Virus record (IMG/VR): IMGVR_UViG_3300027963_000090
Coordinates: 1 to 57,071 of that record
Length of the DNA stretch: 57,071 nt
Strand: one strand, 5' to 3'
DNA from: a virus
Taxonomy: Duplodnaviria; Caudoviricetes
The stretch's first letter is position 1, and every line of letters begins with the position of its first letter. Below the pieces are notes generated by a model. That model saw only the letters and a program-made list of their open reading frames with translations, searched no databases and was not told the DNA's origin. A program made the translations under genes and the position numbers. This document shows positions 33,737 through 57,016 of the stretch, in pieces.

Positions 33737-34093
33737 ATGATTAAAAATCTTAACGTTGTTGCTGAATTATTAATAGTTACTGATGCAATGTCCAGTTTTA
33801 ACAATCAATTAAAAATATTGAAGAATAAATTTTTGGACAGCAATATTGCTTTTGTAGAAGGACATCAGTTCACAATAACATCTGCACTGATATCACATTG
33901 TGATATTTTGATTGCTGCTGAAAGAACTCAAGATGTGATACTATTGGATGATTATCAAAATCCTGTATTGATTAAAAATCTTGTAGATTTTAAAGATAAC
34001 ATTATAGATTTGTATCAAAGCAATTTGAATTCATATTATACTGAATACAATGAATTGTTAAAAACCAAAGGTGAAGTCAAGGACAATGCATGA
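33737..34093 (+). CDS. hypothetical protein
   Basis: 118 aa ORF with promoter and SD; ATGA overlap with the next gene. Confidence 0.65.
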   Translation: MIKNLNVVAELLIVTDAMSSFNNQLKILKNKFLDSNIAFVEGHQFTITSALISHCDILIAAERTQDVILLDDYQNPVLIKNLVDFKDNIIDLYQSNLNSYYTEYNELLKTKGEVKDNA

Positions 34094-34950
34094 AAAAAGG
34101 TATAATAATTTATGCTCATAACAATAGCAGCATTGACTATGTCAAGCAGGCCATATTCTGCACTCAACAAATTAGAAAACATTTAAAACTTCCAGTAACA
34201 CTGATCACTTCCAATCAGGAACATCTTGAAAAAAATTATAAAAAACAAGCAATAATTTTTGATAAAATTATCTCTGTGCCTGATTACAGCACTGCTCAAC
34301 AAAAAACTTTTTATGATGGGCAAAACAAGCATGTCACAGATCAATGGAAAAACCATTTGCGTTCCACTGCTTATGAGTTAAGCCCTTATGATGAAACGCT
34401 TGTGATGGATTCAGATTATATTGTTTGTAATAATAATTTGTCTAAATGTTTCAAATCCAACGAAGATTTTCTTATACACAAAAAATCCATTTATATCAAT
34501 TATTCCAGTAAATCAGAATCTAAATTAAAAGCTATCAGTGATACAGGTGTTGATATGTATTGGGCCACTGTGTTTTATTTTAAAAAGACCACGAGAGTTA
34601 AAAAACTATTTGAACTAATACAGCATATCAAAGATGATTGGCAATTTTATAGATTCAGTTATCAAATAGTGGACACGTCATTTAGAAACGATTTTGCTTA
34701 CAGCATAGCCATACATATGATAAATGGATTTCAACAAGGAGTATGGCCTTATTCATTGCCAGACAGTTTGTATCATATTACTGATAGAGATCTAGTAAAT
34801 TCTTTTAATAAAGAAGTTTGGAATTTTTCTCTAGCTATTGATAACAATCAGTACATGCCTATGAGTGTTAAAGGTATCAATATACACATCATGAATAAAT
34901 TTGCACTGGATAAAATTATAGACAAAGGATTAAATCGTGTTAGAATCTAA
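34090..34950 (+). CDS. GT-A fold glycosyltransferase-like protein (GT8-like)
   Basis: KGIIIYA...DYVKQA...SPYDETLVMDSDY (DxD)...FRNDFAYSIA. Confidence 0.65.
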   Translation: MKKGIIIYAHNNSSIDYVKQAIFCTQQIRKHLKLPVTLITSNQEHLEKNYKKQAIIFDKIISVPDYSTAQQKTFYDGQNKHVTDQWKNHLRSTAYELSPYDETLVMDSDYIVCNNNLSKCFKSNEDFLIHKKSIYINYSSKSESKLKAISDTGVDMYWATVFYFKKTTRVKKLFELIQHIKDDWQFYRFSYQIVDTSFRNDFAYSIAIHMINGFQQGVWPYSLPDSLYHITDRDLVNSFNKEVWNFSLAIDNNQYMPMSVKGINIHIMNKFALDKIIDKGLNRVRI

Positions 34951-35779
34951 AGGATATTGTATATTTGCACAAAAAAATAATCAAGTGGATTATGTGCGTC
35001 AAGCATACGCATTGGCTTTGAGTATAAAAACACACATGCCTCTCAGTCAAGTGTGTTTAATTACCAATGTGAATGTGCCTGCTTATATGAAAAAATTATT
35101 TGATTATATCGTGGATATACCAGGAGATGATGATGCAGTAAATTCTGAATGGAAAATAGAAAATAGATATAAAATTTATCAAGCCACACCATATGAACAT
35201 TCAATCATATTGGATGCTGACATGCTGATATGCAGCGATATCAGTCATTGGTGGGATTTTTTAAAGAATTTTGATCTATTTTTTACCACACAAGTAAGAA
35301 CATACAGAAATGAAATTGCTAATTCCACTTATTATCGTAAAACTTTTAAAAATAATCAATTGCCTAATTTATATTGTGGCATGCATTACTATAAAAAATG
35401 TCGAAACAATGGAGATTTTTTAGGATTATTAAAACAAATAGTTTTGAATTACAAATTATTCTATGAAAAATACACACCCAACAACACACAAACTTGGTGC
35501 AGTATGGATGTGAGTGTGGCCATAGCAAGTAAATTATTAGGCATAACTGAAAAAATTACCAGCAAAGTACCTTATATTGGATTCACACATATGAAACCAC
35601 ACAGTCAAGGGTGGGAACATACACCAGATCACTGGATGGAAAAAGTTAACATATATTATGATTCAAAAAAAAGAATAAAACTGGGTAACTTTTTACAGCA
35701 AGGTATATTGCATTATGTGGAACCTGAATTTTTAAGTGAACAATTAATGAATCAATTGGAAAAAAATTACAATGGATAA
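34937..35779 (+). CDS. GT-A fold glycosyltransferase-like protein (paralog of 34090)
   Basis: KGYCIFA...DYVRQA...TPYEHSIILDADM (DxD)...FTHMK...ILHYV. Confidence 0.65.
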   Translation: MLESKGYCIFAQKNNQVDYVRQAYALALSIKTHMPLSQVCLITNVNVPAYMKKLFDYIVDIPGDDDAVNSEWKIENRYKIYQATPYEHSIILDADMLICSDISHWWDFLKNFDLFFTTQVRTYRNEIANSTYYRKTFKNNQLPNLYCGMHYYKKCRNNGDFLGLLKQIVLNYKLFYEKYTPNNTQTWCSMDVSVAIASKLLGITEKITSKVPYIGFTHMKPHSQGWEHTPDHWMEKVNIYYDSKKRIKLGNFLQQGILHYVEPEFLSEQLMNQLEKNYNG

Positions 35780-36347
35780 TCAAAAATTTAGATATTTAAA
35801 ATTTGATAAGTTTACCGGAGAAATTCAATCCTGTCAGGGAGGTTATATTGCTGATGGGTTGGCTATCAATGAGGAATTAGGCATAGACTTTGTTACTGGT
35901 AAAGAAGTTATGAGCAATTACAAAGTGATTTTTGTTGATAATGCTTACAAGTTAATTAAAAAATATGTGATACAAAAAGATTCTTACAACAACACACAAT
36001 CAAACGATACTGTTATTAATAAAAATATTTATAAAATCACAACAGCAGTCAACGATAATAATTGTATTTCAATTAGATTGAATAAAAAAGAAAAAAATTT
36101 AATGTTTTCAGTAACAGAACAGTTTAAAGATAGTATGAAAGATTATTTTATAAAAAATTCTTCTAAAGATCACTATTTTTTTGCTACTAAAAAGAACGAT
36201 GGTAGTATATTAGATAATATATTTGTTATTGATATGAAAGAATTACTAGAACAAGGAATCATAAATGTAAGTTATGACCCAAAACACAGCGTGGACCTGT
36301 ATTGTCGTAAAACATTTGATTACAAATATGAGGAAATCAATGAATAA
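35772..36347 (+). CDS. hypothetical protein
   Basis: 191 aa, very AT-rich, overlaps both neighbours. Confidence 0.6.
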   Translation: MDNQKFRYLKFDKFTGEIQSCQGGYIADGLAINEELGIDFVTGKEVMSNYKVIFVDNAYKLIKKYVIQKDSYNNTQSNDTVINKNIYKITTAVNDNNCISIRLNKKEKNLMFSVTEQFKDSMKDYFIKNSSKDHYFFATKKNDGSILDNIFVIDMKELLEQGIINVSYDPKHSVDLYCRKTFDYKYEEINE

Positions 36348-37248
36348 AATTGCTATCAAAGATTGTGATATCATATTTTTAAGTTATGATGAGCCCAATG
36401 CTGATAAAAATTATGCTGATTTAAAAAAGAAAATGCCATGGGCCAAACGAGTGCATGGTATATTTGGGTCAGACACAGCTCATAAAGCCTGTGCTGCACT
36501 GTCTGACACAGAATATTTTGTTACTGTGGATGGTGATACTCAATTGGATGAAAAATTTATTAATTTAGTGATTGATTTGGACAGCATGGGCATGGATAAT
36601 TCATATATTTTTAGTTGGTGTGGACACATTGATTTAAATGGATTAAAATATGGCAATGGCAGTATTAAATTATGGACCAGAACATTTGTTAATGAGATGA
36701 AAACTCATGAAAACTATCAAGGCAAAGACAGAAATTTAATTGAGTTTTGTTATTTTGACAAATTATTTCAGTTTAATGAAAATTATTCCACCAGTTACAT
36801 CAATAGTACTCCCAAACAAGCATGGAGAGCAGGATTCCGTGAAGGTGTAAAAATGAGTATTGCTAAAGACAGCAGAGTAAAAGACTATAAAACACTGTGG
36901 TGGCAAAATTATCATAGATTAATCATATGGATGACAGTGGGTATGGATGTGAAGAATGGCATTTGGGCCATTGCTGGTGCTAGAGAAGGTTGTTACAGAA
37001 CCATATGTACTGATTGGAATATTAGTTTGACTAGAGATTTTAAATATCTGGATCAGACTTGGTCGGATTTTAGTCAACAGATATCTCAAAATCAAGAAAA
37101 ATGTCTTGAAAGAATAAAAGATCTTGGTAAAGAAATACTTAAAAAACAATCAATGGAATTGCCTGTTGAACCTTTGAATGCTGAGCAGAGTAAATTTTTT
37201 AAAAAGGTGTATATTAATTCGCCTAGAGTGTTAAGAAAGACCATATGA
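36340..37248 (+). CDS. glycosyltransferase family 2-like protein
   Basis: Start reassigned to ATG 36340 (GAGGA SD); DIIFLSYDEPNA...RVHG..G...AH.A...TVDGD (DxD)...AWRAGFREGVK. Confidence 0.6.
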   Translation: MNKIAIKDCDIIFLSYDEPNADKNYADLKKKMPWAKRVHGIFGSDTAHKACAALSDTEYFVTVDGDTQLDEKFINLVIDLDSMGMDNSYIFSWCGHIDLNGLKYGNGSIKLWTRTFVNEMKTHENYQGKDRNLIEFCYFDKLFQFNENYSTSYINSTPKQAWRAGFREGVKMSIAKDSRVKDYKTLWWQNYHRLIIWMTVGMDVKNGIWAIAGAREGCYRTICTDWNISLTRDFKYLDQTWSDFSQQISQNQEKCLERIKDLGKEILKKQSMELPVEPLNAEQSKFFKKVYINSPRVLRKTI

Positions 37249-37952
37249 TGTACGATATATTTTTTATAAGTTATAATGAACCCAATGCAGATCAAAATTA
37301 CTCTCTATTGAAACAAAGATTTCCATTGGCTCAAAGAGTTCACGGCATAAAAGGCATTCAACAAGCACATATCAGAGCTGCCACATTGAGTTTGACCAAA
37401 ATGTTTTGGGTGGTAGACGGTGATGCAGTGATTGAAGACGATTTTATGTTTGATTTCCAAGTGGATCCTAATGAATTAAATGCTGTGCATGTGTGGAGAA
37501 GCCGAAATCCCATCAATGAACTGGAGTATGGTTATGGCGGAGTAAAATTACTGCCCAAAAGACTCACGATGAACATGGATCCCAATAGAATAGACATGAC
37601 CACCAGCATATCTAATAGGTTTAGAGCCATGCATGAAGTATCCAACACCACTGTGTTCAATACAGATCCATTCAACACATGGAAAAGTGCTTTTAGAGAG
37701 TGTGTCAAGCTCAGCAGCAAGGTAATCGATCGTCAGGTGGACAAAGAAACTGAAAAAAGATTATTGATTTGGTGCACAGTGGGAGATGATAAACCATGCG
37801 GAGAGTATGCCATTGCTGGAGCACTGGCAGGCAGAGTGTACGGCACGGACAACCAAGGTAATTCAGATGCTTTGAGAATGATCAATAACTTTGAATGGTT
37901 AAAATTAGTATTTGTGGGACAATTTCCACACATGGAGAAAAAAATATTATGA
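37245..37952 (+). CDS. glycosyltransferase family 2-like protein (paralog of 36340)
   Basis: DIFFISYNEPNA...RVHGIKG...AH..A...VVDGD...YGYGGVKL...TWKSAFRECVK. Confidence 0.6.
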   Translation: MMYDIFFISYNEPNADQNYSLLKQRFPLAQRVHGIKGIQQAHIRAATLSLTKMFWVVDGDAVIEDDFMFDFQVDPNELNAVHVWRSRNPINELEYGYGGVKLLPKRLTMNMDPNRIDMTTSISNRFRAMHEVSNTTVFNTDPFNTWKSAFRECVKLSSKVIDRQVDKETEKRLLIWCTVGDDKPCGEYAIAGALAGRVYGTDNQGNSDALRMINNFEWLKLVFVGQFPHMEKKIL

Positions 37953-38950
37953 TAGATACCAACATTCCATTTGATAAAATTGTAAACTTTGGTCAACGCA
38001 CCATGTTGAACAGTAAATTGTTTTCTGTGAGTTGGATCTTGGCTCGTTTTTGCAACTATGATTGTTCTTACTGCTGGCCTTATGCCAAAAGCAAACAGAA
38101 AGATCACAGACCATTGTCAGTTTACACAGGAGTGGTGGATGAAATCAAACGACAGGCCAGACAGAATGGATTCACAGACTATCATTTCAGTTTTTCAGGT
38201 GGAGAACCCACTGCCTACAAAGATTTTTTACAATTGGTACAGCATTATAGTGCTGATACTGCTCCAGAATATCAAAGTATTCACATGACCACCAACCTAA
38301 GTCCTTCAGAAAAGTGGTGGGAAAGATGGTTGGAAGCCACAAAAACATTGAACCGCAGAAGTATCACTGCCAGCTTTCATGCTGAATTCGCTGATGAACA
38401 AAAATTTGGAGATAAAATATTACTGTTGATGAAGAATAATGTGTTTGTCACAATTAATCAAGTGATGGTGCCTGATAGATTTGCTGAATACTATGATAGA
38501 TGTGCAAGATTCCACTCCAGAGGTATCAATGTTACACTGAAACCACAGAGTGATCCCACAGCAAGTTTTGTTATTGAAGGTTATACTCGAGATCAACTGA
38601 ACACTTTACAAACAGGATTTCCTCAACGCATACAAGAAGGTGAAAATTACAAAGATTTATTTCAAATTGAGATGATGGATGCTCAAGGCAACAAGTATTA
38701 CATGGATCAAGCAGAGAGATTCAATGCTTTTGGCTTCAATAAATTCAAAGGATGGCACTGTAATGCTGGATATCAGAGTTGTGTCATTAGAGAACCAAAC
38801 GGAGAAGTCAAAAGAAGTTACAGTTGTCATGATCAACCACTGGGTAACATAGAACAAGGATTCAAATTGTTTGATAAACCAAAAGTTTGTATAACTCCCA
38901 CTTGTGTGAGTTCAGCAGATTCAAAAATACCCAAGGCTCGACATGTATAG
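37949..38950 (+). CDS. radical SAM enzyme with C-terminal Cys-rich auxiliary domain (type B)
   Basis: CNYDCSYC, SGGEP, TTN, ASFH; C-terminal FKGWHC.AG...C...C....C.S; start reassigned to ATG 37949. Confidence 0.88.
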   Translation: MIDTNIPFDKIVNFGQRTMLNSKLFSVSWILARFCNYDCSYCWPYAKSKQKDHRPLSVYTGVVDEIKRQARQNGFTDYHFSFSGGEPTAYKDFLQLVQHYSADTAPEYQSIHMTTNLSPSEKWWERWLEATKTLNRRSITASFHAEFADEQKFGDKILLLMKNNVFVTINQVMVPDRFAEYYDRCARFHSRGINVTLKPQSDPTASFVIEGYTRDQLNTLQTGFPQRIQEGENYKDLFQIEMMDAQGNKYYMDQAERFNAFGFNKFKGWHCNAGYQSCVIREPNGEVKRSYSCHDQPLGNIEQGFKLFDKPKVCITPTCVSSADSKIPKARHV

Positions 38951-39932
38951 ATACCAAGATATAAAGGATATTCATTTGGAAATCACCAGCAAGTGTCAAG
39001 CCAAATGTCCCATGTGTCCTAGAAGAATCAGTGGAGGACCAATAAATCCATTTATCAAATTGGACGAAATAACTTTAGGTGTATTCAAACAATGGTTTGA
39101 ACCAAACTTCATAAAACAATTGGACAGTTTATTCATGTGTGGTAATTTGGGAGATCCTATCATATCCAAAGACACATTGGAAATATATCAGTACTTGCGT
39201 GAACTAAATCCCAACATTAGATTGGCCATGCACACCAACGGCAGTGCTAGAGATACAGAATGGTGGCAAAGATTGGCTCAATTGAAAGTAAAAGTGACAT
39301 TTGGCATTGATGGTTTAGCAGATACCCATCATCTTTATAGGATCAGCACAGATTTCAATAAAATAATTGAAAATGCTCAAGCATTTATTTCAGCAGGTGG
39401 AGTGGCCAAATGGCACATGTTGGTGTTTGCTCACAATGAACATCAAATTGAACAGTGTAGAACAATGTCCAAAGACATGGGCTTTGTGGATTTTTCAATC
39501 AAACACACTTCTAGATTCAAGCAGGATTATTTACAAGTGATTGATGACTTGGGTAGACCCACACACAGAATCAAACCCACTCAAACCAGTTTGGATATGA
39601 TTCCGTTGTCTGAAGCAGCACAAAAAGAAGTCAAACCACACATTGTTTGTAAAGCACAGAAATATAAACAGTTGTATGTGAGTGCTTGTGGTAATGTGTC
39701 ACCTTGTTGTTGGTTGGATATGGAATGGATACCACCCATGCAAGAATCCAGAGTAGATTATATGGAAAAAATTTCAGAATTTCCCAATCTTCATCGCGAA
39801 ACATTGAAAGAAATATTTGATAATGGATTTTTTTCAAAAATAGAAACACAATGGAGCACAGTGGGATTGAAAGAATGCACCAAACAATGTGGGTCATTTG
39901 ATAAACTAGGAGCACAATTTGTTGAAAATTAA
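38943..39932 (+). CDS. radical SAM/SPASM-twitch enzyme
   Basis: CQAKCPMC, CGNLGDP, HTNG, FGIDG; C-terminal C...YVSACGNVSPCC...C...C. Confidence 0.88.
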   Translation: MYRYQDIKDIHLEITSKCQAKCPMCPRRISGGPINPFIKLDEITLGVFKQWFEPNFIKQLDSLFMCGNLGDPIISKDTLEIYQYLRELNPNIRLAMHTNGSARDTEWWQRLAQLKVKVTFGIDGLADTHHLYRISTDFNKIIENAQAFISAGGVAKWHMLVFAHNEHQIEQCRTMSKDMGFVDFSIKHTSRFKQDYLQVIDDLGRPTHRIKPTQTSLDMIPLSEAAQKEVKPHIVCKAQKYKQLYVSACGNVSPCCWLDMEWIPPMQESRVDYMEKISEFPNLHRETLKEIFDNGFFSKIETQWSTVGLKECTKQCGSFDKLGAQFVEN

Positions 39933-40530
39933 TATACAAGACGTTTTATTTTGGATGGATGCTATCAGACAATCTGATGACAGATATCGTACATTGGAAA
40001 GTTTCTGGAAAGGTCAAATCAACAGCAAAGTATGGTTGATTGAACAATTAAAAAAATTACCCAGAGCACACAGCATGGATATTTTAATTTGTGGTGGATG
40101 GTATGGAGTGATGGCCACACTTTTATTCAACAGTGATCTGTATGTGAATAAAATAACCAGCATGGACATAGACAGCAAGTGTGAAAACACAGCAAATACC
40201 ATGAACAAACAGTATGAAATGTCTGGTAGATTCCGTGCTGTTACTCAAGACATGCTCACTTATAAAGATTACAATCGTTATGACATGATTATCAACACAG
40301 TGTGTGAGCATTTGACAACAGAACAGTACAATGAATGGTTAAATTTAATACCCAAAGACAAAATTATTGTGTTGCAAAGCAATGACTATGTGATTCCTGA
40401 ACATGTAAACCCCATGAAGGATTTAAATCAGTTTGTAAACCATAGCAAATTGTATCCTATTGTGGAACCTAGTGAATTACAAACAGAAAAATACAAAAGA
40501 TTTATGATTGTAGGTAAAAACAATGAATAA
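39919..40530 (+). CDS. class I SAM-dependent methyltransferase-like protein
   Basis: DILICGGWYG motif I, SMDID, IINTVCEH; TTG start after AGGAG. Confidence 0.7.
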   Translation: MLKINIQDVLFWMDAIRQSDDRYRTLESFWKGQINSKVWLIEQLKKLPRAHSMDILICGGWYGVMATLLFNSDLYVNKITSMDIDSKCENTANTMNKQYEMSGRFRAVTQDMLTYKDYNRYDMIINTVCEHLTTEQYNEWLNLIPKDKIIVLQSNDYVIPEHVNPMKDLNQFVNHSKLYPIVEPSELQTEKYKRFMIVGKNNE

Positions 40531-41191
40531 TGAACAAATAACCAAACAAGTATTGGAAAAATTTAAAAAAAAACAAATAGGTTGGTTGCAACTAGATATT
40601 TCTTTTGAAAATTACATTGATCATCAAGAAGTATCTGCTGTGAATGATTTTTACGTGGATCATAGAGAAGGAGAAAACCACAAAGGATGGCAAAGTTGTT
40701 GTGTGTATGGGTTAGGCATTACTAAAACCCAAGTGGCACAACATTATGGACACACGAATGAATTAAATGCTCCTTATCATTGGACTGCATTGACACAATT
40801 GGCTCCAAAAGCCACTGAATTTTGGAAAAATTTTCCTGCAGAAAAATATACTAGAGTTAGATTTATGAAATTAGCACCTAATGGATATGTGGGATTGCAC
40901 AATGATGCTCCCAGCAATATGCCACCTGATATTGATTTATTAAATTATTTATTACCCATTAATTTAAGCATTACTCACCCCAAAGATTGTGTTATGGAAA
41001 TAGAAAATCACGGCATAGTGCCTTGGAAACCAGGCAGTGTATTTTTAATCAATATACTGAATAACCACACAGTAAAAAACAACAGCACAGAAGATAGAAT
41101 ACACATGATTGCTCAAGCACACGTGGGCAATCAACGTGAAAAATTCTGTGAATTAATTGCTAAAAGTGCTATAAAAAATGATATTCTTTAG
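40523..41191 (+). CDS. 2OG-Fe(II) oxygenase, Asp/Asn beta-hydroxylase-like
   Basis: VRFMKLAPNG.VGLHND...NNHTVKNNSTEDRIHMI (HxD...H...R). Confidence 0.8.
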   Translation: MNNEQITKQVLEKFKKKQIGWLQLDISFENYIDHQEVSAVNDFYVDHREGENHKGWQSCCVYGLGITKTQVAQHYGHTNELNAPYHWTALTQLAPKATEFWKNFPAEKYTRVRFMKLAPNGYVGLHNDAPSNMPPDIDLLNYLLPINLSITHPKDCVMEIENHGIVPWKPGSVFLINILNNHTVKNNSTEDRIHMIAQAHVGNQREKFCELIAKSAIKNDIL

Positions 41192-42530: not shown

Positions 42531-42538
42531 ATACTGTT

Positions 42539-49222: not shown

Positions 49223-49850
49223 AGATTGGAATCATTTTTACAAATATGAATTGGGCAAAATAGAATTAGCCAACATGGTGTATGAACCATTGATTAGTCT
49301 TGATAAAGACATATTTAAAATGAACTTTAACAATAATCAATATTTCGTTAATCCCAATATGACTGACGATCTTAGACAAAATTGGTTTGCTAGAGAAACC
49401 AACTACATAGAAAAGTTAAAAAATAAACCATATGTTCCTGAAATTCTAAATATTGATCACAGAAATAGAACAATTGAATTCAAATGGTATGATCGTAGTT
49501 TAAGCAAACTCATACACACGGGTGAAATATCCACAGTTTCCAATTGGCAACAACAGATCAAAGATATTTTGTCAGACTTATTGTCACAGAACATACACAA
49601 ATCCAATTTGTATCCACATACATTTTACTTAGATAGTAAAAACAAAGTTCGCATAATGGATCTTTATGGTTGTACCTGTGACGAAGATAGATACGTGTCC
49701 AAAGAATTGTTAAAATCCATATTATTTGATCCCAATCATCCTAGATTTGCTCAAAGTCTTGTGGGTGAACTGTATGACACTTTCAAATTGTATGAATCAA
49801 CGGTGAAAATGAATTATGGCAAATGGCCAGGAGATTTTTTAAATGCTTGA
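49215..49850 (+). CDS. protein kinase-like fold protein with degenerate catalytic loop
   Basis: FK...WFARE...VPEI...IEF...IHKSNLYPHTF...VRIMDLYG. Confidence 0.55.
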   Translation: MIKDWNHFYKYELGKIELANMVYEPLISLDKDIFKMNFNNNQYFVNPNMTDDLRQNWFARETNYIEKLKNKPYVPEILNIDHRNRTIEFKWYDRSLSKLIHTGEISTVSNWQQQIKDILSDLLSQNIHKSNLYPHTFYLDSKNKVRIMDLYGCTCDEDRYVSKELLKSILFDPNHPRFAQSLVGELYDTFKLYESTVKMNYGKWPGDFLNA

Positions 49851-50391
49851 ATACGTGGGTAATTGCAAAGATGTGATTGATTGGCACAGTGTTATAAAAA
49901 GCATTGAAGATCAACAGAGTGCTTACATAGGTCCAAGACACGATGTGGGACATCATGTGCCTGGAGTGGAAGAAGTGGCTAAGCCATTGCGTGAGGCTGG
50001 CTATAAAATGAAACACGAAGGAGGCAATGCCAGTTGGGATATGTATCTACCAGGCACAAATTTTGATAAAAAGATAGCAGAAAAGTTTTGTGAATGGGTT
50101 GGAATGAAAAGTTATATCAATGCTTGGATCAGCAGAGTAAAACCTGGTGATGTAGCACCTTGGCATTGGGATATTACAGATGATGAAAAAACATTAGAAC
50201 ACAAAAAAGAAATGGTTAGATATCATTGTCATATAAGTCCTCCAGCACCAGGACATGTTTTTATCGTAGAAGATCATTGTTTGTACAATCAAGAAATGGG
50301 AGCCACTTGGAAATGGCCCAAACGAACTTCATGGCACGCTGGGTCTAATTGTGGATTGATTCCAAAATACGTTTTCAATATTTGGGGATAA
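49843..50391 (+). CDS. 2OG-Fe(II) oxygenase-like cupin
   Basis: WISRVKPGDVAPWHWD...RYH...WHAGSNCG...K. Confidence 0.7.
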   Translation: MLEYVGNCKDVIDWHSVIKSIEDQQSAYIGPRHDVGHHVPGVEEVAKPLREAGYKMKHEGGNASWDMYLPGTNFDKKIAEKFCEWVGMKSYINAWISRVKPGDVAPWHWDITDDEKTLEHKKEMVRYHCHISPPAPGHVFIVEDHCLYNQEMGATWKWPKRTSWHAGSNCGLIPKYVFNIWG

Positions 50392-50398
50392 AAATATA

Positions 50399-50950
50399 AT
50401 GAAAATAATTATCACAGGTCATACGTCAAACATAGGCAAAATGTTGTTTGAATATCTTAGTAAAAATCACGAATGTTTAGGATTTTCTAAATCCACAGGT
50501 TGTGATTTAAATGTTAAAGAACAAATGGATTCTTTAATTAAAAAATCATTAGACAGTGATTGTTTGATAAATTTAGCACACATAGATAATATTCAAAGTC
50601 AAATTTTAATCAACATTAATGAACAATGGAGCAATCACAGATTAAAAAATGTTATCACATTTGGCACTCTAGCTACTAAAATACATCCAAAACTTTTAGA
50701 AAGTATTAACGCTAACATCACATATCTTAAACAAAAACATCATCTTGATGTGATACATAATTCTTTGAGTATACAAAAACCATTTGGAACCCAGGTCAAA
50801 TTTACCATGTTAAGAATTGCTAATTATGGTCCAAAGACTGGAGAAAGATCCAATGAACCTACTTGTAGTGCTGAAGATATTACTAGAACAATAGATTATA
50901 TTTTAAATCAAGATTTATATATTAGTAATATTGATTTAAGAAAAATTTAA
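50399..50950 (+). CDS. short-chain dehydrogenase/reductase-like protein
   Basis: KIIITGHTSNIGK Rossmann motif, INLA, YLKQK (YxxxK). Confidence 0.7.
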   Translation: MKIIITGHTSNIGKMLFEYLSKNHECLGFSKSTGCDLNVKEQMDSLIKKSLDSDCLINLAHIDNIQSQILININEQWSNHRLKNVITFGTLATKIHPKLLESINANITYLKQKHHLDVIHNSLSIQKPFGTQVKFTMLRIANYGPKTGERSNEPTCSAEDITRTIDYILNQDLYISNIDLRKI

Positions 50951-52017
50951 ATTATTTTTCTTTTAGAACCTTTTCTTTTCACATCAAGAGTGCAACAATG
51001 AGTACCACCTTCCCAATACACTTCATGTCTTTGTGTGACTACATGACAATTGATATTGTGTGTTTTTAAAAACTCAAATAATTCTGGCAAATGTTTGCCA
51101 AACAATATATTTTTTGAATCTAAAATTAATACATTTAAATCAAAACAAATCTCCTGTGTGTATCCTCTCCAATTGGCCAAATATTTTTCTAACCAAGCAT
51201 TAGAATATTTTCCATCAGTGGCAGTATAATCATTGATATAGTTGTCTGTAATAACTGTGCCTACAAAATTTTTAACATCAATTAATTTTTTATTGCGTAA
51301 ACATAAAGGAACCCATTCTATACCAGCATGTATCACAGTGTTATCATCTATCAGCAAAAATCCATGATCAATGTGTCCATAATTTTTAAATATGGTATCA
51401 CCTGTATTTTCAATATAATTAAATTCTTTCAAATTGCGTTTAAGCCATTCTAATCCTAATTGCGAACCTGGTCCTCTGCCGTTGTATATCAATGAATCGC
51501 CTGCTTTAAACACTGAGGCTGTGTGCCACAACAATTGATCTGCTAATTTTTCTTTGTATATGGAGTCTGATATGTACCAATTGTCATCAATTTTTGAATC
51601 AATCAACATAGGCAATGGTTGAGCAATCCAGTTGTATCCTTCTTTAAATAATTCATTAAAAATCTTTCTATAACTTAAAGAATCAAAATATCTGTCGGTA
51701 TAACTGGTATATGTTTGTATGATATCACGACCCATAATCAAATACTGATCTCTGGGCACTATGGGGCATATAGGTAAATTAATTTTAAAATTGGGCATCT
51801 GAATTGATTGTTCAAACTTTTGCACTTCAGGTCTGTGTACTTTAATATTAGATTTTTTTAAAAAATCTGTTAAATTGTTGAGATCTTGTTTGGTTTCTTC
51901 TAATATTTTATTAAAACTTGAAATACTTTCTTTAGGTAAAAAATTATCCACATCTCCAGGAGCATAGCAATCACCCACAATTACTTCTTGTAATGGATCA
52001 AATTCTGTGTAGATCAT
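50947..52017 (-). CDS. amidinotransferase (glycine/inosamine-phosphate amidinotransferase family)
   Basis: TEFDPLQEVIVG, PRD, GLEWLKR, GHID, GGTHCCTLDVKR. Confidence 0.85.
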   Translation of the reverse strand: MIYTEFDPLQEVIVGDCYAPGDVDNFLPKESISSFNKILEETKQDLNNLTDFLKKSNIKVHRPEVQKFEQSIQMPNFKINLPICPIVPRDQYLIMGRDIIQTYTSYTDRYFDSLSYRKIFNELFKEGYNWIAQPLPMLIDSKIDDNWYISDSIYKEKLADQLLWHTASVFKAGDSLIYNGRGPGSQLGLEWLKRNLKEFNYIENTGDTIFKNYGHIDHGFLLIDDNTVIHAGIEWVPLCLRNKKLIDVKNFVGTVITDNYINDYTATDGKYSNAWLEKYLANWRGYTQEICFDLNVLILDSKNILFGKHLPELFEFLKTHNINCHVVTQRHEVYWEGGTHCCTLDVKRKGSKRKII

Positions 52018-52021: not shown

Positions 52022-52648
52022 TTATATTAAATATTTGTAATTTATAAACATTTGCATTGATAATCTTACAACGCCTTTTTTTGCCACCACTGTTGATACA
52101 GCATGAATGTGATCTGTATAATTTATTATTATTCTGTTGGGAGTAGGTTCAATAAATTTTCCATGTGTATCATCTTTGTCTTCTTTATAAAGAAAAAGAC
52201 CTCCATCGTTAATATCCCAAGTATCGTGTAAAAAGTGTGTTACTCCTACATAATCTATAGAATTGTCCTTTTCATAAGTGCTGTCAAGATGCCAATGCCC
52301 CCCGTATGGAGCATGATTTTCATGATAACGCACCAAACAATCCATGGTATTAAGTATGTCTTTGGACACAACATTTTTGCTCACTAAATTTTTTAACCAA
52401 AATGTTCTGCTTTCACCTGTTAACATGTAATATGTGGAATTGTGAAATCCATAGTGATCATTTTCTACTTGTCCAGAAAATTCTGTAATTTCATTTCCAA
52501 TTTGTTTTATTATTTTTGAATCCTTGGCATGTTCTGGATCAATATAATGTAGTTCACATTCATTATTGGCAATTTCATGTTTAATAATAGATTTTAACTC
52601 AACCAATGTTGGTGTATCGAAAAAATTATCAATTGTTTTTATTGTCAT
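52022..52648 (-). CDS. 2OG-Fe(II) oxygenase, prolyl 4-hydroxylase-like
   Basis: TIDNFF, WHLD, WDINDGGLF, P.PNR, HAVS.V, RLSMQMF. Confidence 0.8.
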   Translation of the reverse strand: MTIKTIDNFFDTPTLVELKSIIKHEIANNECELHYIDPEHAKDSKIIKQIGNEITEFSGQVENDHYGFHNSTYYMLTGESRTFWLKNLVSKNVVSKDILNTMDCLVRYHENHAPYGGHWHLDSTYEKDNSIDYVGVTHFLHDTWDINDGGLFLYKEDKDDTHGKFIEPTPNRIIINYTDHIHAVSTVVAKKGVVRLSMQMFINYKYLI

Positions 52649-53747
52649 AGTAATCTAAATCCTGTTTTAAAACTGTAAAATACTCATCGTTAGCATTCAA
52701 AGGCATCATGTATAAATTTTTAAAATTGCCTTTGCGTATCATGTAAAGACAACCAAAACGATTCAATATTTCAAAACCCGTGCTTTGAATAGTTTTAATA
52801 GCTGTGTTTTGGATGCTTTGATGTTTGTCTAATATTTGTTCTTTTTCCAATATGTCTATGTATTTCAAAGCACTGTTTATGCCTGGCAAAGAAAAACTAT
52901 AAGTGTATCCGTGATCCCATTCAAAATTAGTGGGTAAAATATTATGTATTTTTTCATTGTACATGGTTATACTCAAAGGAAAATATCCACCTGTGATAGA
53001 TTTGCCCATGGTAAAAATATCAGGTTGTATGGGCAAATGTTTCCAACCAATATAATTGCCTGTTTTGCCACCTCCTATAAAAATATCATCCACAATTAAT
53101 ATAACGTCAAATTTTTCTTGAACATATTTTATTTTTTCCCAAAAAATGTCTGAATTAGGTGTTAAATCATCTCCCCACGAACATGTTTCTACTATAATAC
53201 TCATCACTTGATTCCAATCAACAGAATTTACATCAAAATCTCTGTTTAATCTAATAACTCCATCATATCTATTCATGGTATATAAAGGATTATTCACTAA
53301 CAAATCTCCAAGATTGCTATTAAGGAAAGTGCATCCATGAAAACTGCGATAAAAACTTACAATTTTATTTTTGTTTTGATTTTTTTTAATTGAATGATAT
53401 GCTGAAGATAATTTTACTGCTCCTTCATTGGCATCGCTGCCTGACAAAGCAAAAAAACTTCTATATCCATTGCTCATATTAAACAATTTATCGGATAGTT
53501 CATAACTGGCATGATTTAATTTTAAATCTTCTTCATATATTGAAGATTCTGCTATTTCTGGTTTAACATTTTTAATTGAATCGCACACATGTTGAATAAT
53601 GTCTGTTCTATCAAATCCCAGTGTAAAACAACCATAGTGTAACAGAGGATCTATTTTTTTGATGCCATTCTCCACAGTACCAAATTGCCAATGATCTTTT
53701 GATGGATGAGTAGGTTTCTGTTGTCCTGGTATCAATCCTTTTAACAT
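52629..53747 (-). CDS. class III PLP-dependent aminotransferase
   Basis: SGSDANEGAVK, SFHG, LIVDDIFIGGGKTG, DIFTMGKSITGGYFPLS (PLP lysine), HGYTYS. Confidence 0.88.
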   Translation of the reverse strand: MLKGLIPGQQKPTHPSKDHWQFGTVENGIKKIDPLLHYGCFTLGFDRTDIIQHVCDSIKNVKPEIAESSIYEEDLKLNHASYELSDKLFNMSNGYRSFFALSGSDANEGAVKLSSAYHSIKKNQNKNKIVSFYRSFHGCTFLNSNLGDLLVNNPLYTMNRYDGVIRLNRDFDVNSVDWNQVMSIIVETCSWGDDLTPNSDIFWEKIKYVQEKFDVILIVDDIFIGGGKTGNYIGWKHLPIQPDIFTMGKSITGGYFPLSITMYNEKIHNILPTNFEWDHGYTYSFSLPGINSALKYIDILEKEQILDKHQSIQNTAIKTIQSTGFEILNRFGCLYMIRKGNFKNLYMMPLNANDEYFTVLKQDLDYYDNKNN

Positions 53748-53755: not shown

Positions 53756-54310
53756 TTATCGTAATTCTAACCTAATTTGGTCAAACGTGGTCTCTGTGTT
53801 ATTTTGAAAAGTTTTTTTTGAATCTAAAGATATCGTTAATCCTTGCTGTTGTAAATTAATTTTATCAAAAAAATTTATGTTTTTTGTTTCTCCTTGGTGA
53901 TAGTTTTTACCAAAAATATGTGTGTGTTCATTTATGTTAATTGTAACTTCATAATTGTCATCCAATTGTTCACTGCCCAACACATAATTGTGTCTGTTTA
54001 TTTCTGTTTTTATAGAATGATATTGATCATTTATGGGTTCAAACTTATACAAAACATCCACAAGTTCTTTGCTGGGATCTTTAAAATTTATGTTATAGTT
54101 AAATTTTAATACATTAACCGTGTTGTAATCAATATCAATATTTTTTTTTAATGTGATAGGCAAGTTTTCTTCAGCATCATTTATACCTTCAAACAATAAA
54201 TTATTGTTAAGATATATGTTTAAATGATTAGAATAATGATGTTTTTTAAAAGAAAAATAACTTTTTTCTTGTTCTTTAGGACAAATAACAGTGATAGTTC
54301 TTTTATTCAT
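53756..54310 (-). CDS. hypothetical protein
   Basis: AT-rich ORF; start likely ATG 54310 overlapping the upstream stop. Confidence 0.55.
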   Translation of the reverse strand: MNKRTITVICPKEQEKSYFSFKKHHYSNHLNIYLNNNLLFEGINDAEENLPITLKKNIDIDYNTVNVLKFNYNINFKDPSKELVDVLYKFEPINDQYHSIKTEINRHNYVLGSEQLDDNYEVTININEHTHIFGKNYHQGETKNINFFDKINLQQQGLTISLDSKKTFQNNTETTFDQIRLELR

Positions 54311-54899
54311 AAGCAATGTCTTTGAATATTTCCAATGCTTCGTCAAATTGAAGATGAGAATTATTTAATTTTAATAACGTGAAACACAATGTCCAACGAT
54401 CCTGTTTGTTATCAGGATTGTATGTGGAATGCAGTTGCCCAACATTCATTAGACTGGGTTTATTAATAACTTTTTCACACACTAAATTACAACTTTCTTC
54501 TGTAGATTGGAAAGCGTTAGTAACAACTATATCTGGCACAATACCTTGAGATTCTATGTGTGAATTGTCTGGAAAAGCTGGAATTAAAAAAGATTCATCT
54601 TTGACTTGCCACCATCTTGTTGTGCTGTTGGTTGGTCCCCAGGTAAAGTTAATTTTTGTTGCATTGCTTATTGTGCTGGTATCATTGTGCATGGGTAGTT
54701 TGCCCCCATTGGGTGGAGTATAAAACCCTTCAATGACATTTGAAACTTTAAGATTAAAATTTTTTATCCAAGTTATAATACTTTGATCAATGAATTTATT
54801 TGGAACAAAAATCATATTGGGATGACTGTAACTTTGATTAAAACAATCTGGTTTTGGGTATTCAAAAGGGAGTTTTAAATATCTGTGATACTTGTTCAT
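54303..54899 (-). CDS. 2OG-Fe(II) oxygenase-like cupin
   Basis: FYTPP.G.LPMHND...KINF...NVGQLHS..N....RWTLCF; AGGAG SD. Confidence 0.65.
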   Translation of the reverse strand: MNKYHRYLKLPFEYPKPDCFNQSYSHPNMIFVPNKFIDQSIITWIKNFNLKVSNVIEGFYTPPNGGKLPMHNDTSTISNATKINFTWGPTNSTTRWWQVKDESFLIPAFPDNSHIESQGIVPDIVVTNAFQSTEESCNLVCEKVINKPSLMNVGQLHSTYNPDNKQDRWTLCFTLLKLNNSHLQFDEALEIFKDIAYE

Positions 54900-54909: not shown

Positions 54910-55716
54910 TTAATAGTTTTTTAAATGATTTATGCCTAACTTTTTTCTAAATTCATCTGTAAACACACAATCAATTCGCAATCCATACTCTTGCTCACGA
55001 TTGATCTCACCACCGTGCCAGTCTTGATCGTTCCAAAAAGCAGCATTTGAATTGATATAAACTTTGTTTTTTGTTTCAGGATCCCAAATGTAAAATCCTC
55101 TTTTAGTATTGTGACGTATGTGTATAAACTCATTGCAATGGTCACTGTATCCTTGTGAGTCACCATGTTTGCCATCTAAGTCTCTGTGTTCAAATGGCTG
55201 TCCGTCATGTTCACAATGAAAAAATATCACTCTGCCTATTTGACTCACTATGTTTTGATTCACAAGATTTTTAACCCATGTGACCACTCCAGGAAAATGT
55301 TTGCTTTCTTCCGTGAGATGTCTTTCAGAATTTCTATTATCCCAATCACCTTCATTCCATAAAAAATAATAGATGTATGGATCTTTAGCACCCAACACTG
55401 CTTTGAGATAGCGTGTGAATTGATTTCTTGTGCGGTAATCTTTGATGTTGGCATAAAGATCATCACCATTTTTTCTAATAGGGTGATCTGTGGGCAGTGC
55501 AAGATATTCTTTCACAGCCTGATAAATTGGTTTCCAATTCAATTGATAACTCATGTCTTGTAGATTAAATCCTGGTGACATCCATGTGCCTTCTTTGGCA
55601 TATTCTCTAGCCAAAGCAAATCCCCTGCAGATTTCAGGATGTAATTTCTTGAAACCTTCTATGTCCAAATGTGGAGTTAAATCAATATATGGTTGACCAC
55701 CAATTCCTCTTATCAT
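54910..55716 (-). CDS. 2OG-Fe(II) oxygenase-like protein
   Basis: GRVIFF...FEHRD...DWHGG...LRID (HxD...H...R). Confidence 0.5.
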   Translation of the reverse strand: MIRGIGGQPYIDLTPHLDIEGFKKLHPEICRGFALAREYAKEGTWMSPGFNLQDMSYQLNWKPIYQAVKEYLALPTDHPIRKNGDDLYANIKDYRTRNQFTRYLKAVLGAKDPYIYYFLWNEGDWDNRNSERHLTEESKHFPGVVTWVKNLVNQNIVSQIGRVIFFHCEHDGQPFEHRDLDGKHGDSQGYSDHCNEFIHIRHNTKRGFYIWDPETKNKVYINSNAAFWNDQDWHGGEINREQEYGLRIDCVFTDEFRKKLGINHLKNY

Positions 55717-55721
55717 CCAAA

Positions 55722-55756
55722 TATTTAGTGTTAAATATTGTGGACAAAAATATTTA
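55722..55756. promoter_or_regulatory. back-to-back late promoter cores
   Basis: TAAATA on minus at 55727-55722 and 55756-55751, on plus at 55732-55737. Confidence 0.55.
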
Positions 55757-56328
55757 TGACTTACAAATTGGTACCATATTCTGAATCAATTGATTTAACA
55801 GAATTTTATCTTCAAGCAGAATCTAGAGGATTCAAAAACAACAACAGCAAAAAAACGTTGGTGGATAGTATCTCCACAGAAAGACTTTCACGTGTTTGGA
55901 TTCTTTATTATAACAATGAAATAGTCGGTACCACTGCTGCTCACAGTTTTGATGAAATGGGACCAAATTGTTTTCGTATTGCTGTGAGATCTTGTGCGTT
56001 CACAGATCGTATGCCAATCAAAAGAGTAAGAACCCGAACGGGGATCATTGAACATCAGCACGTGAGTCCTCAATTTTTTATGACTGCTGGCATAGAATGG
56101 GCAGGCAAAGATAAAAATTTTTATATCACATCAAATAAAAATAGCTGGGGCACTCAACAAAGAGTTCACAGAACTTGGGCTCCAATATTGGCCAAAACAG
56201 GTTGTTTGGAAAACTGTGGTGAAATGTTTTACAGAGGAACTGAACAAACAATTTGGAAAGTAAACGTTGAAATATTCTATCAACAATTAGAACAATACGG
56301 CAGATGGCCTATTGATTGGACTTTATAA
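55756..56328 (+). CDS. hypothetical protein, possible GNAT-fold acyltransferase
   Basis: VWILYYNNEIVG..AAH...FRIAVR pattern; start reassigned to ATG 55756. Confidence 0.45.
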   Translation: MTYKLVPYSESIDLTEFYLQAESRGFKNNNSKKTLVDSISTERLSRVWILYYNNEIVGTTAAHSFDEMGPNCFRIAVRSCAFTDRMPIKRVRTRTGIIEHQHVSPQFFMTAGIEWAGKDKNFYITSNKNSWGTQQRVHRTWAPILAKTGCLENCGEMFYRGTEQTIWKVNVEIFYQQLEQYGRWPIDWTL

Positions 56329-57016
56329 GTCGAATAAAAAATCCAGATAAATCCGGTGAAGGATTACGCCAAGCAGTTGAATTGGTGTGATGATATTTGT
56401 GCCAGCCTTCCCCAGCCACAGTCCATGCTATTAATTTACTGTCAGAAACTTCACCATTCCAATGATTAAAAACATTCACTATGCCGCCCATGATAACACT
56501 TAATACTGTGGGAAATATCCATAAAGGAAAAATCAGTATGGGATTAATAATAGCCAATAATACAATATAAAAAGACAACAATTTAAAATAATGCTTATGA
56601 ACAAATTTGTGTTCAGGATATTTCAAAAGTCGTGCTGCATATCTTGGTTCCACATCATAAGCATCAAAGAAGTATCCAAAGAATACTTTGAAATGACCTT
56701 TGTATTTGGGAGAATGTGAATCTTGTTCAGTGTCAGAGAATCTATGATGTTTCAAATGCACAGCAGTCCATGCCACAGTGGAACCTAGTGTAACTATACT
56801 GCTGCAGAACAATAAAAAATAATGCCAAAATTTATTTGTGTTAAAACTTTTATGAGTAAAATATCTGTGCAATCCCACAATGTGTCCAAACACAGCCAAC
56901 AAATATCCAATGATTAAAAAATAAAGAATATTACTAGTCGATAGGATTAATGGGCTAACCAAAAATAATATCCAGCTAATGGAATGAAATATTAATAGTT
57001 TTTTATTGTCTGGCAT
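56309..57016 (-). CDS. membrane fatty acid desaturase (delta-9/DesC-like)
   Basis: Three His boxes HRYFTH, HLKHH, GEGWHKYHH; SD...DSHSP; several hydrophobic segments. Confidence 0.9.
   Translation of the reverse strand: MPDNKKLLIFHSISWILFLVSPLILSTSNILYFLIIGYLLAVFGHIVGLHRYFTHKSFNTNKFWHYFLLFCSSIVTLGSTVAWTAVHLKHHRFSDTEQDSHSPKYKGHFKVFFGYFFDAYDVEPRYAARLLKYPEHKFVHKHYFKLLSFYIVLLAIINPILIFPLWIFPTVLSVIMGGIVNVFNHWNGEVSDSKLIAWTVAGEGWHKYHHTNSTAWRNPSPDLSGFFIRLIKSNQ

Follow-up and report, generated by a model that had tools for sequence, protein, structure and literature searches.

The window analysed here is the whole of the IMG/VR virus record IMGVR_UViG_3300027963_000090 (57,071 bases), which is judged 14% complete and thus points to a genome of roughly 400 kb, and the subject of the analysis is a dense island of largely enzyme-like genes that follows the tail fibre genes at positions 33737-57016. 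The source virus is a freshwater jumbo myovirus. The nearest relatives of its baseplate wedge are found in Atu_ph07, Phosso, SCTP-2 and the Rak2-like group at ~35% identity, and no near relative of the window was detected among 50,697 cultured phage records, either by megablast of the island or by tblastn of g06. Near-identical DNA is present in 20 public runs from 15 studies labelled freshwater, lake or aquatic, with at least half of the sampled words held by 13 of the 20; no RNA data set was listed among the sources, and the one run labelled RNA-Seq is probably DNA. The 44 large open reading frames (ORFs) of the window are numbered g01-g44. Genes for SbcC/SbcD-like nucleases, a late sigma factor of the gp55 type, the baseplate hub and wedge and tail-collar fibres occupy its left part, and the gene order then runs from the giant ORF g10 through the fibres g12-g15 to the island, g16-g44 (Table 1). 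The island comprises 29 ORFs of 118-496 amino acids (aa), mostly overlapping or abutting, with gaps of at most 117 bp and a patchy G+C content of 0.30-0.37; it reads as at least five transcription blocks on both strands and is interrupted by the contig end, the last gene before which is g44. An earlier note, made from the letters of this DNA, had described about 27 contiguous genes starting immediately after the fibres on the same strand; the dense island is real, its ORF count is 29, and g16 indeed starts on the same strand 117 bp past the end of the last fibre-like ORF, g15 (33620). Enzyme motifs, which the note ascribed to nearly all of the genes, are present far beyond chance, although about a third of the labels remain conjectural.

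Six of the ORFs encode radical S-adenosylmethionine (SAM) enzymes, as had been predicted. All six exceed the Pfam cut-off for PF04055 (39.9-60.9 bits versus 29.5), and a six-frame search of the whole window returned exactly the same six genes, none of them in the first 33 kb. The CxxxCxxC motif is present in every translation and is invariant in the g22/g28/g29 and g27/g30 alignments. Three types can be distinguished. First, g22, g28 and g29 share a C-terminal Cys motif, and their alignment shows C289 and C337 of g22 to be invariant along with CxxxCxxC; g22 is also the best-conserved gene of the island, reaching 62-67% identity in distant phages and as much as 56% in Bdellovibrionota. Next, g23 carries a C-terminal SPASM domain. 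Finally, g27 and g30 have an N-terminal twitch and belong to the NCBIfam family NF033640 'N_Twi_rSAM' (cut-off 170), of which g27 spans model positions 2-397 of 398, with SPASM at residues 22-82 ahead of the radical SAM core at 133-310. The Pfam SPASM match is above the cut-off in g23 and g27 and just under it in g30 (19.2 versus 21.5), and g22, g23 and g29 fall outside NF033640 with 35-54 bits. Many weak NCBIfam matches of the radical SAM genes to peptide maturases all lie far under the family cut-offs, and g28 and g29 match QueE weakly. To our knowledge, few phage genomes contain more than one or two radical SAM genes.

Four island proteins had been described as possessing the GT-A fold of glycosyltransferases, which is well supported by structure prediction for g21 and by paralogy for g20. 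The predicted structure of g21 (pLDDT 90.7) shows a GT-A fold followed by a helical domain, and its residues 1-140 align to GT-A/nucleotidyltransferase structures with Z 10-12 and a root-mean-square deviation of 2.7-3.2 over ~137 residues, a fold that is common to sugar nucleotidyltransferases too. Structural neighbours include enzymes that glycosylate viral capsids or peptides, among them PBCV-1 A64R, SunS/ThuS, mimivirus R699 and the mycobacteriophage Che8 glycosyltransferase, and viral glycosyltransferases are also among the BFVD structure matches. The DxD residues D58 and D60 are invariant in 24 sequences of the g20/g21 family, and many proteins are natural g20-g21 fusions of ~535 aa in the same order, with 46% and 65% identity, which argues for a functional linkage of the two. 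Homologues of g21 number 4326 of near-equal length and 2275 longer ones, in proteins of up to 1,948 aa, nearly all without a Pfam family or name; a sequence-profile search of the PDB with the family returned nothing. For g17 and g18, a DxD...H motif (D93, D95 and H259) is invariant in seven sequences, g18 scores 0.99 to Atlas protein-language-model clusters, and the nearest Pfam-bearing clusters, which carry PF03407/PF01501, follow at 0.95-0.96. The motif and the placement with clusters named 'nucleotide-diphospho-sugar transferase' are thus a lead towards sugar transferases for this pair. No curated glycosyltransferase family in Pfam, PHROG or NCBIfam matches g17, g18, g20 or g21, and neither PF01501 (GT8) nor PF03407 matches anything in the window at E <= 1. 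The intervening g19 is poorly conserved, with 29-38% identity in relatives in which the neighbouring genes reach 60-90%.

Six proteins with an HxD...H triad had been taken for 2-oxoglutarate (2OG)-Fe(II) oxygenases, and the triad is invariant in the alignments of all six candidate families, each of 2-8 sequences. The assignment stands for g25 and g38, which are above their Pfam cut-offs; g33, with H78/D80/H122 invariant, is sub-threshold, whereas g35, g41 and g42 have no Pfam match and are recognized by the motif only. Comparison of g33, g35, g41 and g42 with g25 by hhalign gave probabilities of ~1%, and the PDB beta-hydroxylase match of g35 (E 0.59) is at chance level. The g42 protein is well conserved, with 59-62% identity in distant phages; it has no Pfam family and no PDB profile match, and its predicted model (pLDDT 51.9) is too poor for fold comparison. 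Adjacent to g25, its partner g26 has no Pfam match and PDB rows at chance level only; a PF05118-bearing Atlas cluster (688-aa representative) at rank 25 and score 0.84 to g26 provides a lead to a g25-g26 fusion.

Among the remaining genes, the predicted amidinotransferase, class III aminotransferase and desaturase are borne out by the matches of g37, g39 and g44. The g37 protein aligns to HsvA in two stretches, positions 2-239 and 292-354, the Cys of its ...HC.TLD motif is invariant, and its relatives HsvA, SxtG, StrB1 and AGAT are presumably all small-molecule amidinotransferases. The 67 NCBIfam matches of g39 are all under the cut-offs, and its translation contains a ...TMGKSITGG... lysine that is read as the putative pyridoxal phosphate (PLP) lysine. 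A desaturase gene similar to g44 is mentioned for freshwater pelagimyophages in the accessible text of PMC7029224. Other labels hold to a lesser degree. The short-chain dehydrogenase/reductase (SDR)-like g36 is marginal, and the PP-loop and kinase-like assignments of g32 and g34 are weak: in g32, SGGADS and C227/C255/C258/C261 are invariant, with weak matches to a QueC-like phrog (4.6e-4) and TilS_N (0.0018) and PDB rows that are not significant, while in the g34 alignment the usual catalytic Asp is not evident on visual reading. The methyltransferase and SGNH labels of g24 and g31 are at the motif level, and the GNAT-like label of g43 found no support, as this protein matches nothing in Pfam, PHROGs, NCBIfam or the PDB. 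An NCBIfam scan of ten unnamed island ORFs gave no meaningful match, and the poorly conserved g40 has 33-41% identity in relatives.

In line with the earlier note, no scaffold synthase or DNA-modification core was found in the window, although genes of the latter kind may lie elsewhere in the genome, of which the window is a fragment. Pfam scans of the 29 island ORFs found none of the hallmarks of O-antigen or capsule clusters (flippase, polymerase/ABC exporter, lipid-carrier priming transferase), no other exporter or transporter family, and no hydroxymethylase, DNA kinase, pyrophosphorylase or PUA/THUMP/TRAM domain. Likewise, Pfam and PHROG matches of these ORFs include no cyclase, non-ribosomal peptide or polyketide synthase, ATP-grasp enzyme, precursor peptide, recognition element (RRE) domain of pathways for peptides synthesized on ribosomes and modified post-translationally (RiPP pathways), leader protease, exporter or immunity gene. 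No tRNA gene is present in the window.

Table 1. Genes of the island and the promoter-like site preceding it, with window positions and the assignments discussed in the text.
Feature	Position	Strand	Length (aa)	Assignment and basis
Promoter-like site	33683..33711	+		Sigma-70-like, TTGACT-17 nt-TATAAT, in the 117-bp gap before g16
g16	33737..34093	+	118	No family match; first gene of the fibre-adjacent module
g17	34090..34950	+	286	GT-A/GT8-like sugar transferase candidate; paralogue of g18 (BLASTP 1.6e-12); no family match
g18	34937..35779	+	280	Nucleotide-diphospho-sugar transferase-like; phrog_1903 (unknown function)
g19	35772..36347	+	191	No family match
g20	36274..37248	+	324	GT-A-like; paralogue of g21, 36% identity
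g21	37245..37952	+	235	Predicted GT-A fold and helical domain; large unnamed family
g22	37895..38950	+	351	Radical SAM, C-terminal Cys motif; PF04055 53.7 bits
g23	38943..39932	+	329	Radical SAM, C-terminal SPASM; PF04055 41.4 bits, PF13186 23.3 bits
g24	39919..40530	+	203	Rossmann/class I methyltransferase-like, motif only; no significant family match
g25	40523..41191	+	222	Asp/Asn beta-hydroxylase-family oxygenase; PF05118 43.1 bits versus 22.6
g26	41178..42530	+	450	Partner of g25; nearest Atlas clusters viral
g27	42500..43807	+	435	N-terminal-twitch radical SAM; NF033640 320.7 bits
g28	43791..44696	+	301	Radical SAM, g22 type; PF04055 60.9 bits
g29	44686..45645	-	319	Radical SAM, g22 type; PF04055 50.9 bits; replaced in strain variants
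g30	45642..47132	-	496	N-terminal-twitch radical SAM; NF033640 387.2 bits
g31	47047..47679	-	210	SGNH-like, motif only; no family match; present or absent as a cassette
g32	47667..48488	-	273	PP-loop ATPase-like, four-Cys cluster
g33	48551..49222	+	223	Cupin/Asp-hydroxylase-like (weak); PF05118 16.6 bits, under cut-off 22.6
g34	49215..49850	+	211	Protein-kinase-like (weak); PDB kinases E 0.011-0.4
g35	49843..50391	+	182	HxD...H protein; H108/D110/H165 invariant in 8 sequences
g36	50399..50950	+	183	Short NAD(P)-Rossmann, SDR-like; PF01370 21.7 versus 20.9 bits, N-terminal part only
g37	50947..52017	-	356	Amidinotransferase; PDB HsvA 1.1e-31, SxtG 2.5e-23, StrB1 9.3e-23, AGAT
g38	52022..52648	-	208	2OG-Fe(II) oxygenase; PF13640 32.3 bits versus 27
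g39	52629..53747	-	372	Class III (omega) aminotransferase; PF00202 121 bits versus 30.5
g40	53756..54346	-	196	Poorly conserved; DUF6827 22.5 bits, under cut-off
g41	54303..54899	-	198	HxD...H, motif only; H71/D73/H157 in 2 sequences; no family match
g42	54910..55716	-	268	HxD...H; H177/D179/H234 invariant
g43	55738..56328	+	196	No match
g44	56309..57016	-	235	Membrane acyl-CoA desaturase-like; PDB SCD1 1e-20, conserved His boxes

A scan of IMG/VR with g28 yielded 26 related loci, and five large relatives (G001-G005) were examined; the records of the window and of these relatives are all fragments, 14-32% complete, and individual loci carry the prefix L. In close relatives g21-g24, g27, g28 and g30 are 76-98% identical, with the fibres g14 and g15 at only 49-70%, and gene content shifts by whole genes: g25 with g26 and g31 occur in some relatives only, g37-g41 and the amine module g36-g39 are variable, and g29 is exchanged in some for a relative of 41-46% identity. 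Contigs assembled from other freshwater runs display the same events at nucleotide resolution, with a clean joint from 40522 to 42539 that skips 2,016 bases (g25 and g26), another from 47063 to 47686 that skips 622 bases (g31), and a 1,638-letter replacement of the g29 region at 44668-45661. Several variants of the island therefore coexist in nature. On each 69-116 kb fragment of the large relatives, 7-11 radical SAM genes exceed the cut-off, and these relatives also encode two B12-binding radical SAM enzymes, HMPTM-type radical SAM enzymes and a Trp_halogenase-family enzyme. The latter is a full-length flavin enzyme inside the G005 island (L041 6507-8123, + strand; Pfam 1.7e-92). In G001 a kinase-like gene, together with a radical SAM gene of the HMPTM-zinc-ribbon kind, carries the island past the point corresponding to the window end.

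Comparison of more distant loci separates the island into two modules. The first is fibre-adjacent and consists of g16-g21, g24 and one N-terminal-twitch radical SAM gene; it is found in the cultured Ralstonia jumbo phage RsoM2USA, where homologues of g16, g17, g18, g20, an N-terminal-twitch radical SAM gene, g21 and g24 follow a fibre-like gene in the same order with 25-45% identity, g16 having 28% at the same position, and an unmatched ORF of the size of g19 lies between the g18 and g20 homologues. According to the accessible text of the RsoM2USA paper, the flanking region, ORFs 355-361, is structural and ORFs 347-354 are unnamed; radical SAM is not mentioned in that text, in which 'glycosyl' occurs in a single passage, on ORF60, which lies outside the module. 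Among the 50,697 cultured phage records g21 matches one and g30 matches four. The second module is a radical SAM/cupin block. Homologues of g22, g23, g27, g28, g30, g25, g26, g32, g33, g35, g42 and g43 travel together in phages of 40-65% identity in differing order, and G004 (82.6 kb) and G005 (69.2 kb) contain 11 radical SAM genes each and no g16-g21. Both have homologues of g25, g26, g33, g35, g36, g42 and g43, with g32 present in G005 and g37 and g39 in G004. The islands of these two relatives border arrays of 27 and 33 tRNA genes (L037 7052-15837; L041 17736-19745 with L042 219-6497). A sparse region beside the G004 island, considered as a site for a precursor peptide, proved to be its tRNA array, and a predicted tRNA at L041 18425-18493 has the four-base anticodon 'ttga'. 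The island follows the fibres in three of the five large relatives (G001, G002 and G003). The attachment to the fibre module put forward in the earlier note thus applies to the first module, including that of RsoM2USA, and to three of the five large contigs; it does not extend further because the radical SAM/cupin block of G004 and G005 occurs without a fibre homologue.

Two observations concern the structural genes upstream. The giant ORF of 4874 aa (11721-26345, + strand), located between the baseplate wedge and the fibres, has FG-GAP and CBM_5_12 matches, and in G002 two ORFs are read in the corresponding place, one of 2594 aa and one of 1457 aa that is truncated by the start of the fetched stretch. 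Next comes g11 (26368-26982, + strand; 204 aa; phrog_11259, of unknown function). No gene of the fibre block is better conserved: it is 92-96% identical among relatives in which the neighbouring fibres are at 59-67%. A BLAST hint that g11 is related to g21 was not upheld by hhalign (3.4%).

A bacterial counterpart of the island emerged when the g27/g30 alignment was scanned against a single genome of each prokaryotic species, which gave at least 79 loci in a possibly biased sample. By title count, 61 of the 79 best loci bear Bdellovibrionota names, with top identities of 44-48% to the g30/g27 query. In these bacteria, tblastn reveals a recurrent cassette of g20/g21, g24, g30, g23 and g22 homologues at 35-56% identity, on contigs of up to 2.5 Mb, which often adds N-terminal-twitch paralogues and homologues of g28, g25, g26, g32, g37 or g44. 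Radical SAM paralogues also form arrays of 5-8, accompanied by g20/g21-like and g24-like genes (e.g. L048 7878-14979, L093 3234-17657), and the bacterial g24-like and g25-like proteins are longer, fused forms. The 128 non-island neighbour proteins include recurring GT2, methyltransferase, TauD, radical SAM and GNAT proteins, the remainder being housekeeping, and single carbamoyltransferase and class III aminotransferase genes are also found beside the cassettes; flippase, polymerase, priming transferase and exporter are absent from the 25 commonest families nearby. The bacterial cassette is a chromosomal island with tailoring enzymes of its own, and the shared genes provide a lead that Bdellovibrionota may be a host or a gene-exchange partner of the phage.

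Expression signals in the window appear to be of two kinds. The sigma-70-like site before g16 is the best (11 of 12) in the 20 kb scanned, and the legible relatives L008-L010, L012-L014 and L043 retain the two hexamers around a spacer that varies, with TATACT as the second hexamer in L034. Best sites of this type are also found in the gaps before the gp55-like gene (2802-2830, - strand) and the sbcD-like gene (1920-1948, - strand), and the total number of sigma-70-like sites in the scanned regions is not above that of shuffled controls. The second signal, [ACT]TAAATA, lies 26-30 nt before the start codons of the structural genes g04, g09, g11, g14 and g15 (e.g. at about 8269 and 26342) and is also present before g32 (20 nt), g42 (12 and 41 nt), g40 and g43, with a copy 81 nt upstream of g16. 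With 11 occurrences in 44 upstream windows of 50 nt, versus ~0.67 expected, it is a candidate late-promoter motif. Two other markers of late promoters were discarded: the T4 late promoter TATAAATA has one match versus 5.0 expected and is thus depleted, and TCTAAATA has three matches versus 3.0 expected. Judging from these motifs, the island may be read both early and late.

Taken together, the island is best explained as a set of cytoplasmic enzymes for tailoring, modular and quick to change, within the host-recognition region of this freshwater jumbo myovirus. As to what is tailored, we tentatively favour, with considerable reservation, the decoration of virion fibre and baseplate proteins in the cytoplasm with a radically tailored glycoconjugate. 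The core would consist of the GT-A-like pairs g17/g18 and g20/g21, the methyltransferase-like g24 and the three kinds of radical SAM enzymes (the g22 type, g23 and g27/g30), which might build an unusual sugar-based decoration and transfer it onto a macromolecule made in the cytoplasm, the most likely acceptor being the fibre and baseplate proteins of the virion itself. Variation of this decoration by hydroxylation, amination, guanidinylation and C-H chemistry would then fall to the cupin/2OG oxygenases, the pair of aminotransferase and amidinotransferase, the PP-loop enzyme and the other swappable cassettes. The enzyme classes, the modular build, the fibre synteny of some phages and the variation by cassette are observed; a single product for all parts, its glycan nature and a virion protein as its acceptor are inferred. 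Decoration of a surface macromolecule is favoured because GT-A proteins, fibre synteny, cassette diversification and late-type motifs coincide, and a cytoplasmic acceptor fits because the 29 ORFs include no export-machinery family in the Pfam scans. The presence or absence of g25 with g26 and of g31 and the replacement of g29 among co-occurring strains create the pattern of a surface-diversifying locus, and core enzymes at 80-98% identity beside fibres at 49-70% count in the same direction. The proposal in the earlier note of a dedicated pathway, in which a glycan or other modification of virion proteins or of the host envelope is built and tailored, remains plausible as far as tailoring is concerned, given the four GT-A-like proteins, the small-molecule amine enzymes and the failure to find a scaffold synthase, transporter or DNA-modification core in the window, but the genes do not form one fibre-bound pathway.

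Several observations weigh against virion proteins as the target. First, the core cassette is chromosomal in bacteria, with the phage structural genes g09-g15 matched in none of the 79 listed loci, and neither the baseplate wedge nor fibre g12 has a homologue anywhere on the G004 and G005 contigs. Next, thousands of proteins share the g21 domain at 60-70% identity, which would be easier to reconcile with a universal than with a variable substrate. The solved relatives of the amidinotransferase g37 all act on small molecules, and the B12-radical SAM and Trp-halogenase-family enzymes of the relatives look like natural-product chemistry. Finally, purely late expression is not indicated because the near-consensus g16 promoter resembles the early-type sites of the gp55-like and sbcD-like genes.

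The same promoter, by permitting early expression, would suit remodelling of the host envelope, in which the lipopolysaccharide (LPS), capsule or lipids of the infected cell are altered, for instance to block superinfection, a function that we consider unlikely. The acyl-CoA desaturase g44, the SGNH-like g31 and the oxygenases g25, a PF05118 member, and g33, which resembles that family, would all be at home in such a pathway, PF05118 being a family that includes lipid A hydroxylases. The bacterial cassettes adjoin GT2, methyltransferase, TauD, GNAT and carbamoyltransferase genes, and pelagimyophage loci with GT8-type transferases, LPS genes and radical SAM cassettes are read as modifying the O-chain in the accessible text of PMC7029224. 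However, neither the Pfam matches of the 29 ORFs nor the 25 commonest families near the bacterial cassettes include a flippase, polymerase, lipid-carrier priming transferase or exporter, radical SAM enzymes act in the cytoplasm, and a lytic jumbo phage would profit only briefly from a change of the envelope.

A diffusible or packaged small molecule, resembling an aminocyclitol or aminoglycoside or a guanidino-polyamine or derived from a peptide, and directed against competitors or host defences or used for DNA condensation, is an improbable product too. It would account for the nearest solved relatives of g37 and for the neighbours of this gene, g39 (class III aminotransferase), g38 (2OG oxygenase) and g36 (short, SDR-like), as well as for the B12-binding and HMPTM-type radical SAM and Trp_halogenase-family enzymes of the relatives, and in the accessible text of PMC12801897 a cyanophage set of aminotransferase, inosamine amidinotransferase and radical SAM maturase is called antibiotic-synthesis genes. 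Against it stand the lack of any scaffold-forming enzyme, precursor, RRE, protease, exporter or immunity gene among the island matches, intergenic space that is too small for hidden precursor genes, and the variability of the amine module g36-g39 itself.

It is rather doubtful that the island is an assortment of unrelated auxiliary cassettes in a hyperplastic region, of which only subsets cooperate (g20/g21 with radical SAM enzymes, g25 with g26, and g36-g39). The transcription blocks on both strands, the cassette-wise gain and loss, the patchy G+C content and the occurrence of sub-modules on their own elsewhere, namely of the first module (RsoM2USA), the radical SAM block (G004 and G005) and the core cassette (bacteria), are all compatible with such an assortment, and a similar region in related aquatic myophages is called hypervariable in the accessible text of PMC7029224. 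Yet 12 island families travel together in phages of 40-65% identity in a different order, and several do so in bacteria, which argues for a functional link. Equally doubtful is a further possibility in which the core system of g20/g21, g24 and the three radical SAM types is an undescribed one of widespread freshwater jumbo phages and predatory Bdellovibrionota that would place a novel radical-SAM-tailored glycoconjugate on structures of recognition or attachment; phage fibres and the adhesins of Bdellovibrio, which are reported as phage-fibre-like in the accessible text of PMC10769870, would then be parallel targets.

Modification of nucleic acids, either as hypermodified DNA bases or in the tRNAs of the phage itself, is decidedly improbable: the PP-loop and four-Cys cluster of g32 with its weak QueC/TilS similarity, the weak QueE matches of g28 and g29, the tRNA arrays bordering the G004 and G005 islands, the strong conservation of the g21 domain, which suits a universal substrate, and a study of phage thymidine hypermodification (PMC8989533), in which radical SAM and PLP enzymes are reportedly used, count in its favour, but none of the contigs of the five large relatives (19-32% complete) encodes TGT/DpdA, the modification enzymes and RNA-binding domains listed above are absent from the Pfam matches of the 29 ORFs, the window has no tRNA gene, and the bacterial arrays of 5-8 radical SAM paralogues are unlike known nucleic-acid pathways.

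The lineage is of interest irrespective of the product, as it carries 6 to 11 radical SAM genes per fragment together with oxygenases and transferases that are mostly unnamed in curated libraries, and because the g21-like domain is without a Pfam family and numbers thousands of environmental relatives, assigning it a function would account for much aquatic viral dark matter. Should fibres be what the product decorates, it would represent a new layer of control over phage host range and immune evasion, and if it is a metabolite, the island would be a phage-borne biosynthetic pathway; the Bdellovibrionota cassette offers a second, possibly culturable, route to the chemistry. Whereas a genomic pattern of this kind has been described before, the literature searched gives no account of these enzyme families, of their number or of the bacterial counterpart. 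It contained no description of a radical SAM/SPASM cassette of Bdellovibrionota, and none of the papers retrieved for twitch-domain radical SAM enzymes concerns this family or phages by its title. The 'moraphage' paper (PMC12619734) was considered as a precedent and set aside, as it concerns another lineage and has no mention of radical SAM.

Among known systems, the bacterial cassette shares homologues of g20/g21, g24, g30, g23 and g22 with the phage island, whereas it lies on chromosomes between housekeeping genes, and phage structural genes are absent from it. The island also resembles the RiPP cassettes of sactipeptides, ranthipeptides and proteusins in placing radical SAM enzymes with SPASM/twitch domains beside Asp-hydroxylase-type oxygenases and methyltransferase-like proteins, but differs from them in lacking a precursor, RRE, leader protease and exporter and in the N-terminal position of the twitch in g27 and g30. 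The T4-like aquatic cyanophage S-SCSM2R likewise has neighbouring aminotransferase, amidinotransferase and radical SAM genes; by the description in the accessible text (PMC12801897), its aminotransferase is of the AHBA_syn/DegT type in contrast to the class III g39, and 3 genes stand against the 29 of the island. Mechanistically, the closest analogue appears to be virus-encoded virion glycosylation, at the level of the predicted fold only. Like the PBCV-1 A64R, mimivirus R699 and Che8-type glycosyltransferases, the island would encode putative cytoplasmic GT-A enzymes that operate without host export machinery, although the likeness of g21 to these is only at fold level (8-15% identity, Z ~10). 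None of the PBCV-1, mimivirus and Che8-type systems is known to include radical SAM enzymes.

By analogy of gene order, the closest described pattern appears to be the host recognition cluster (HRC) of pelagimyophages and cyanomyophages. In the accessible text of Zaragoza-Solas et al. 2020 (PMC7029224), the HRC is a large hypervariable island that lies among the structural genes, where it adjoins tail fibres and a giant protein of the baseplate type, and it has glycosyltransferases and, in part of the genomes, radical SAM cassettes. The island of the window is likewise located by the fibres and the giant ORF g10 and differs by cassettes between close relatives, a likeness that rests on gene order and variation. 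In contrast to the HRC phages, the source virus belongs to another lineage, with the wedge nearest to that of Atu_ph07, Phosso and SCTP-2, nearly all families of its island are without a Pfam, PHROG or NCBIfam name, and the load of radical SAM enzymes and oxygenases is far higher, with six radical SAM genes in the window and up to 11 per fragment in its relatives.

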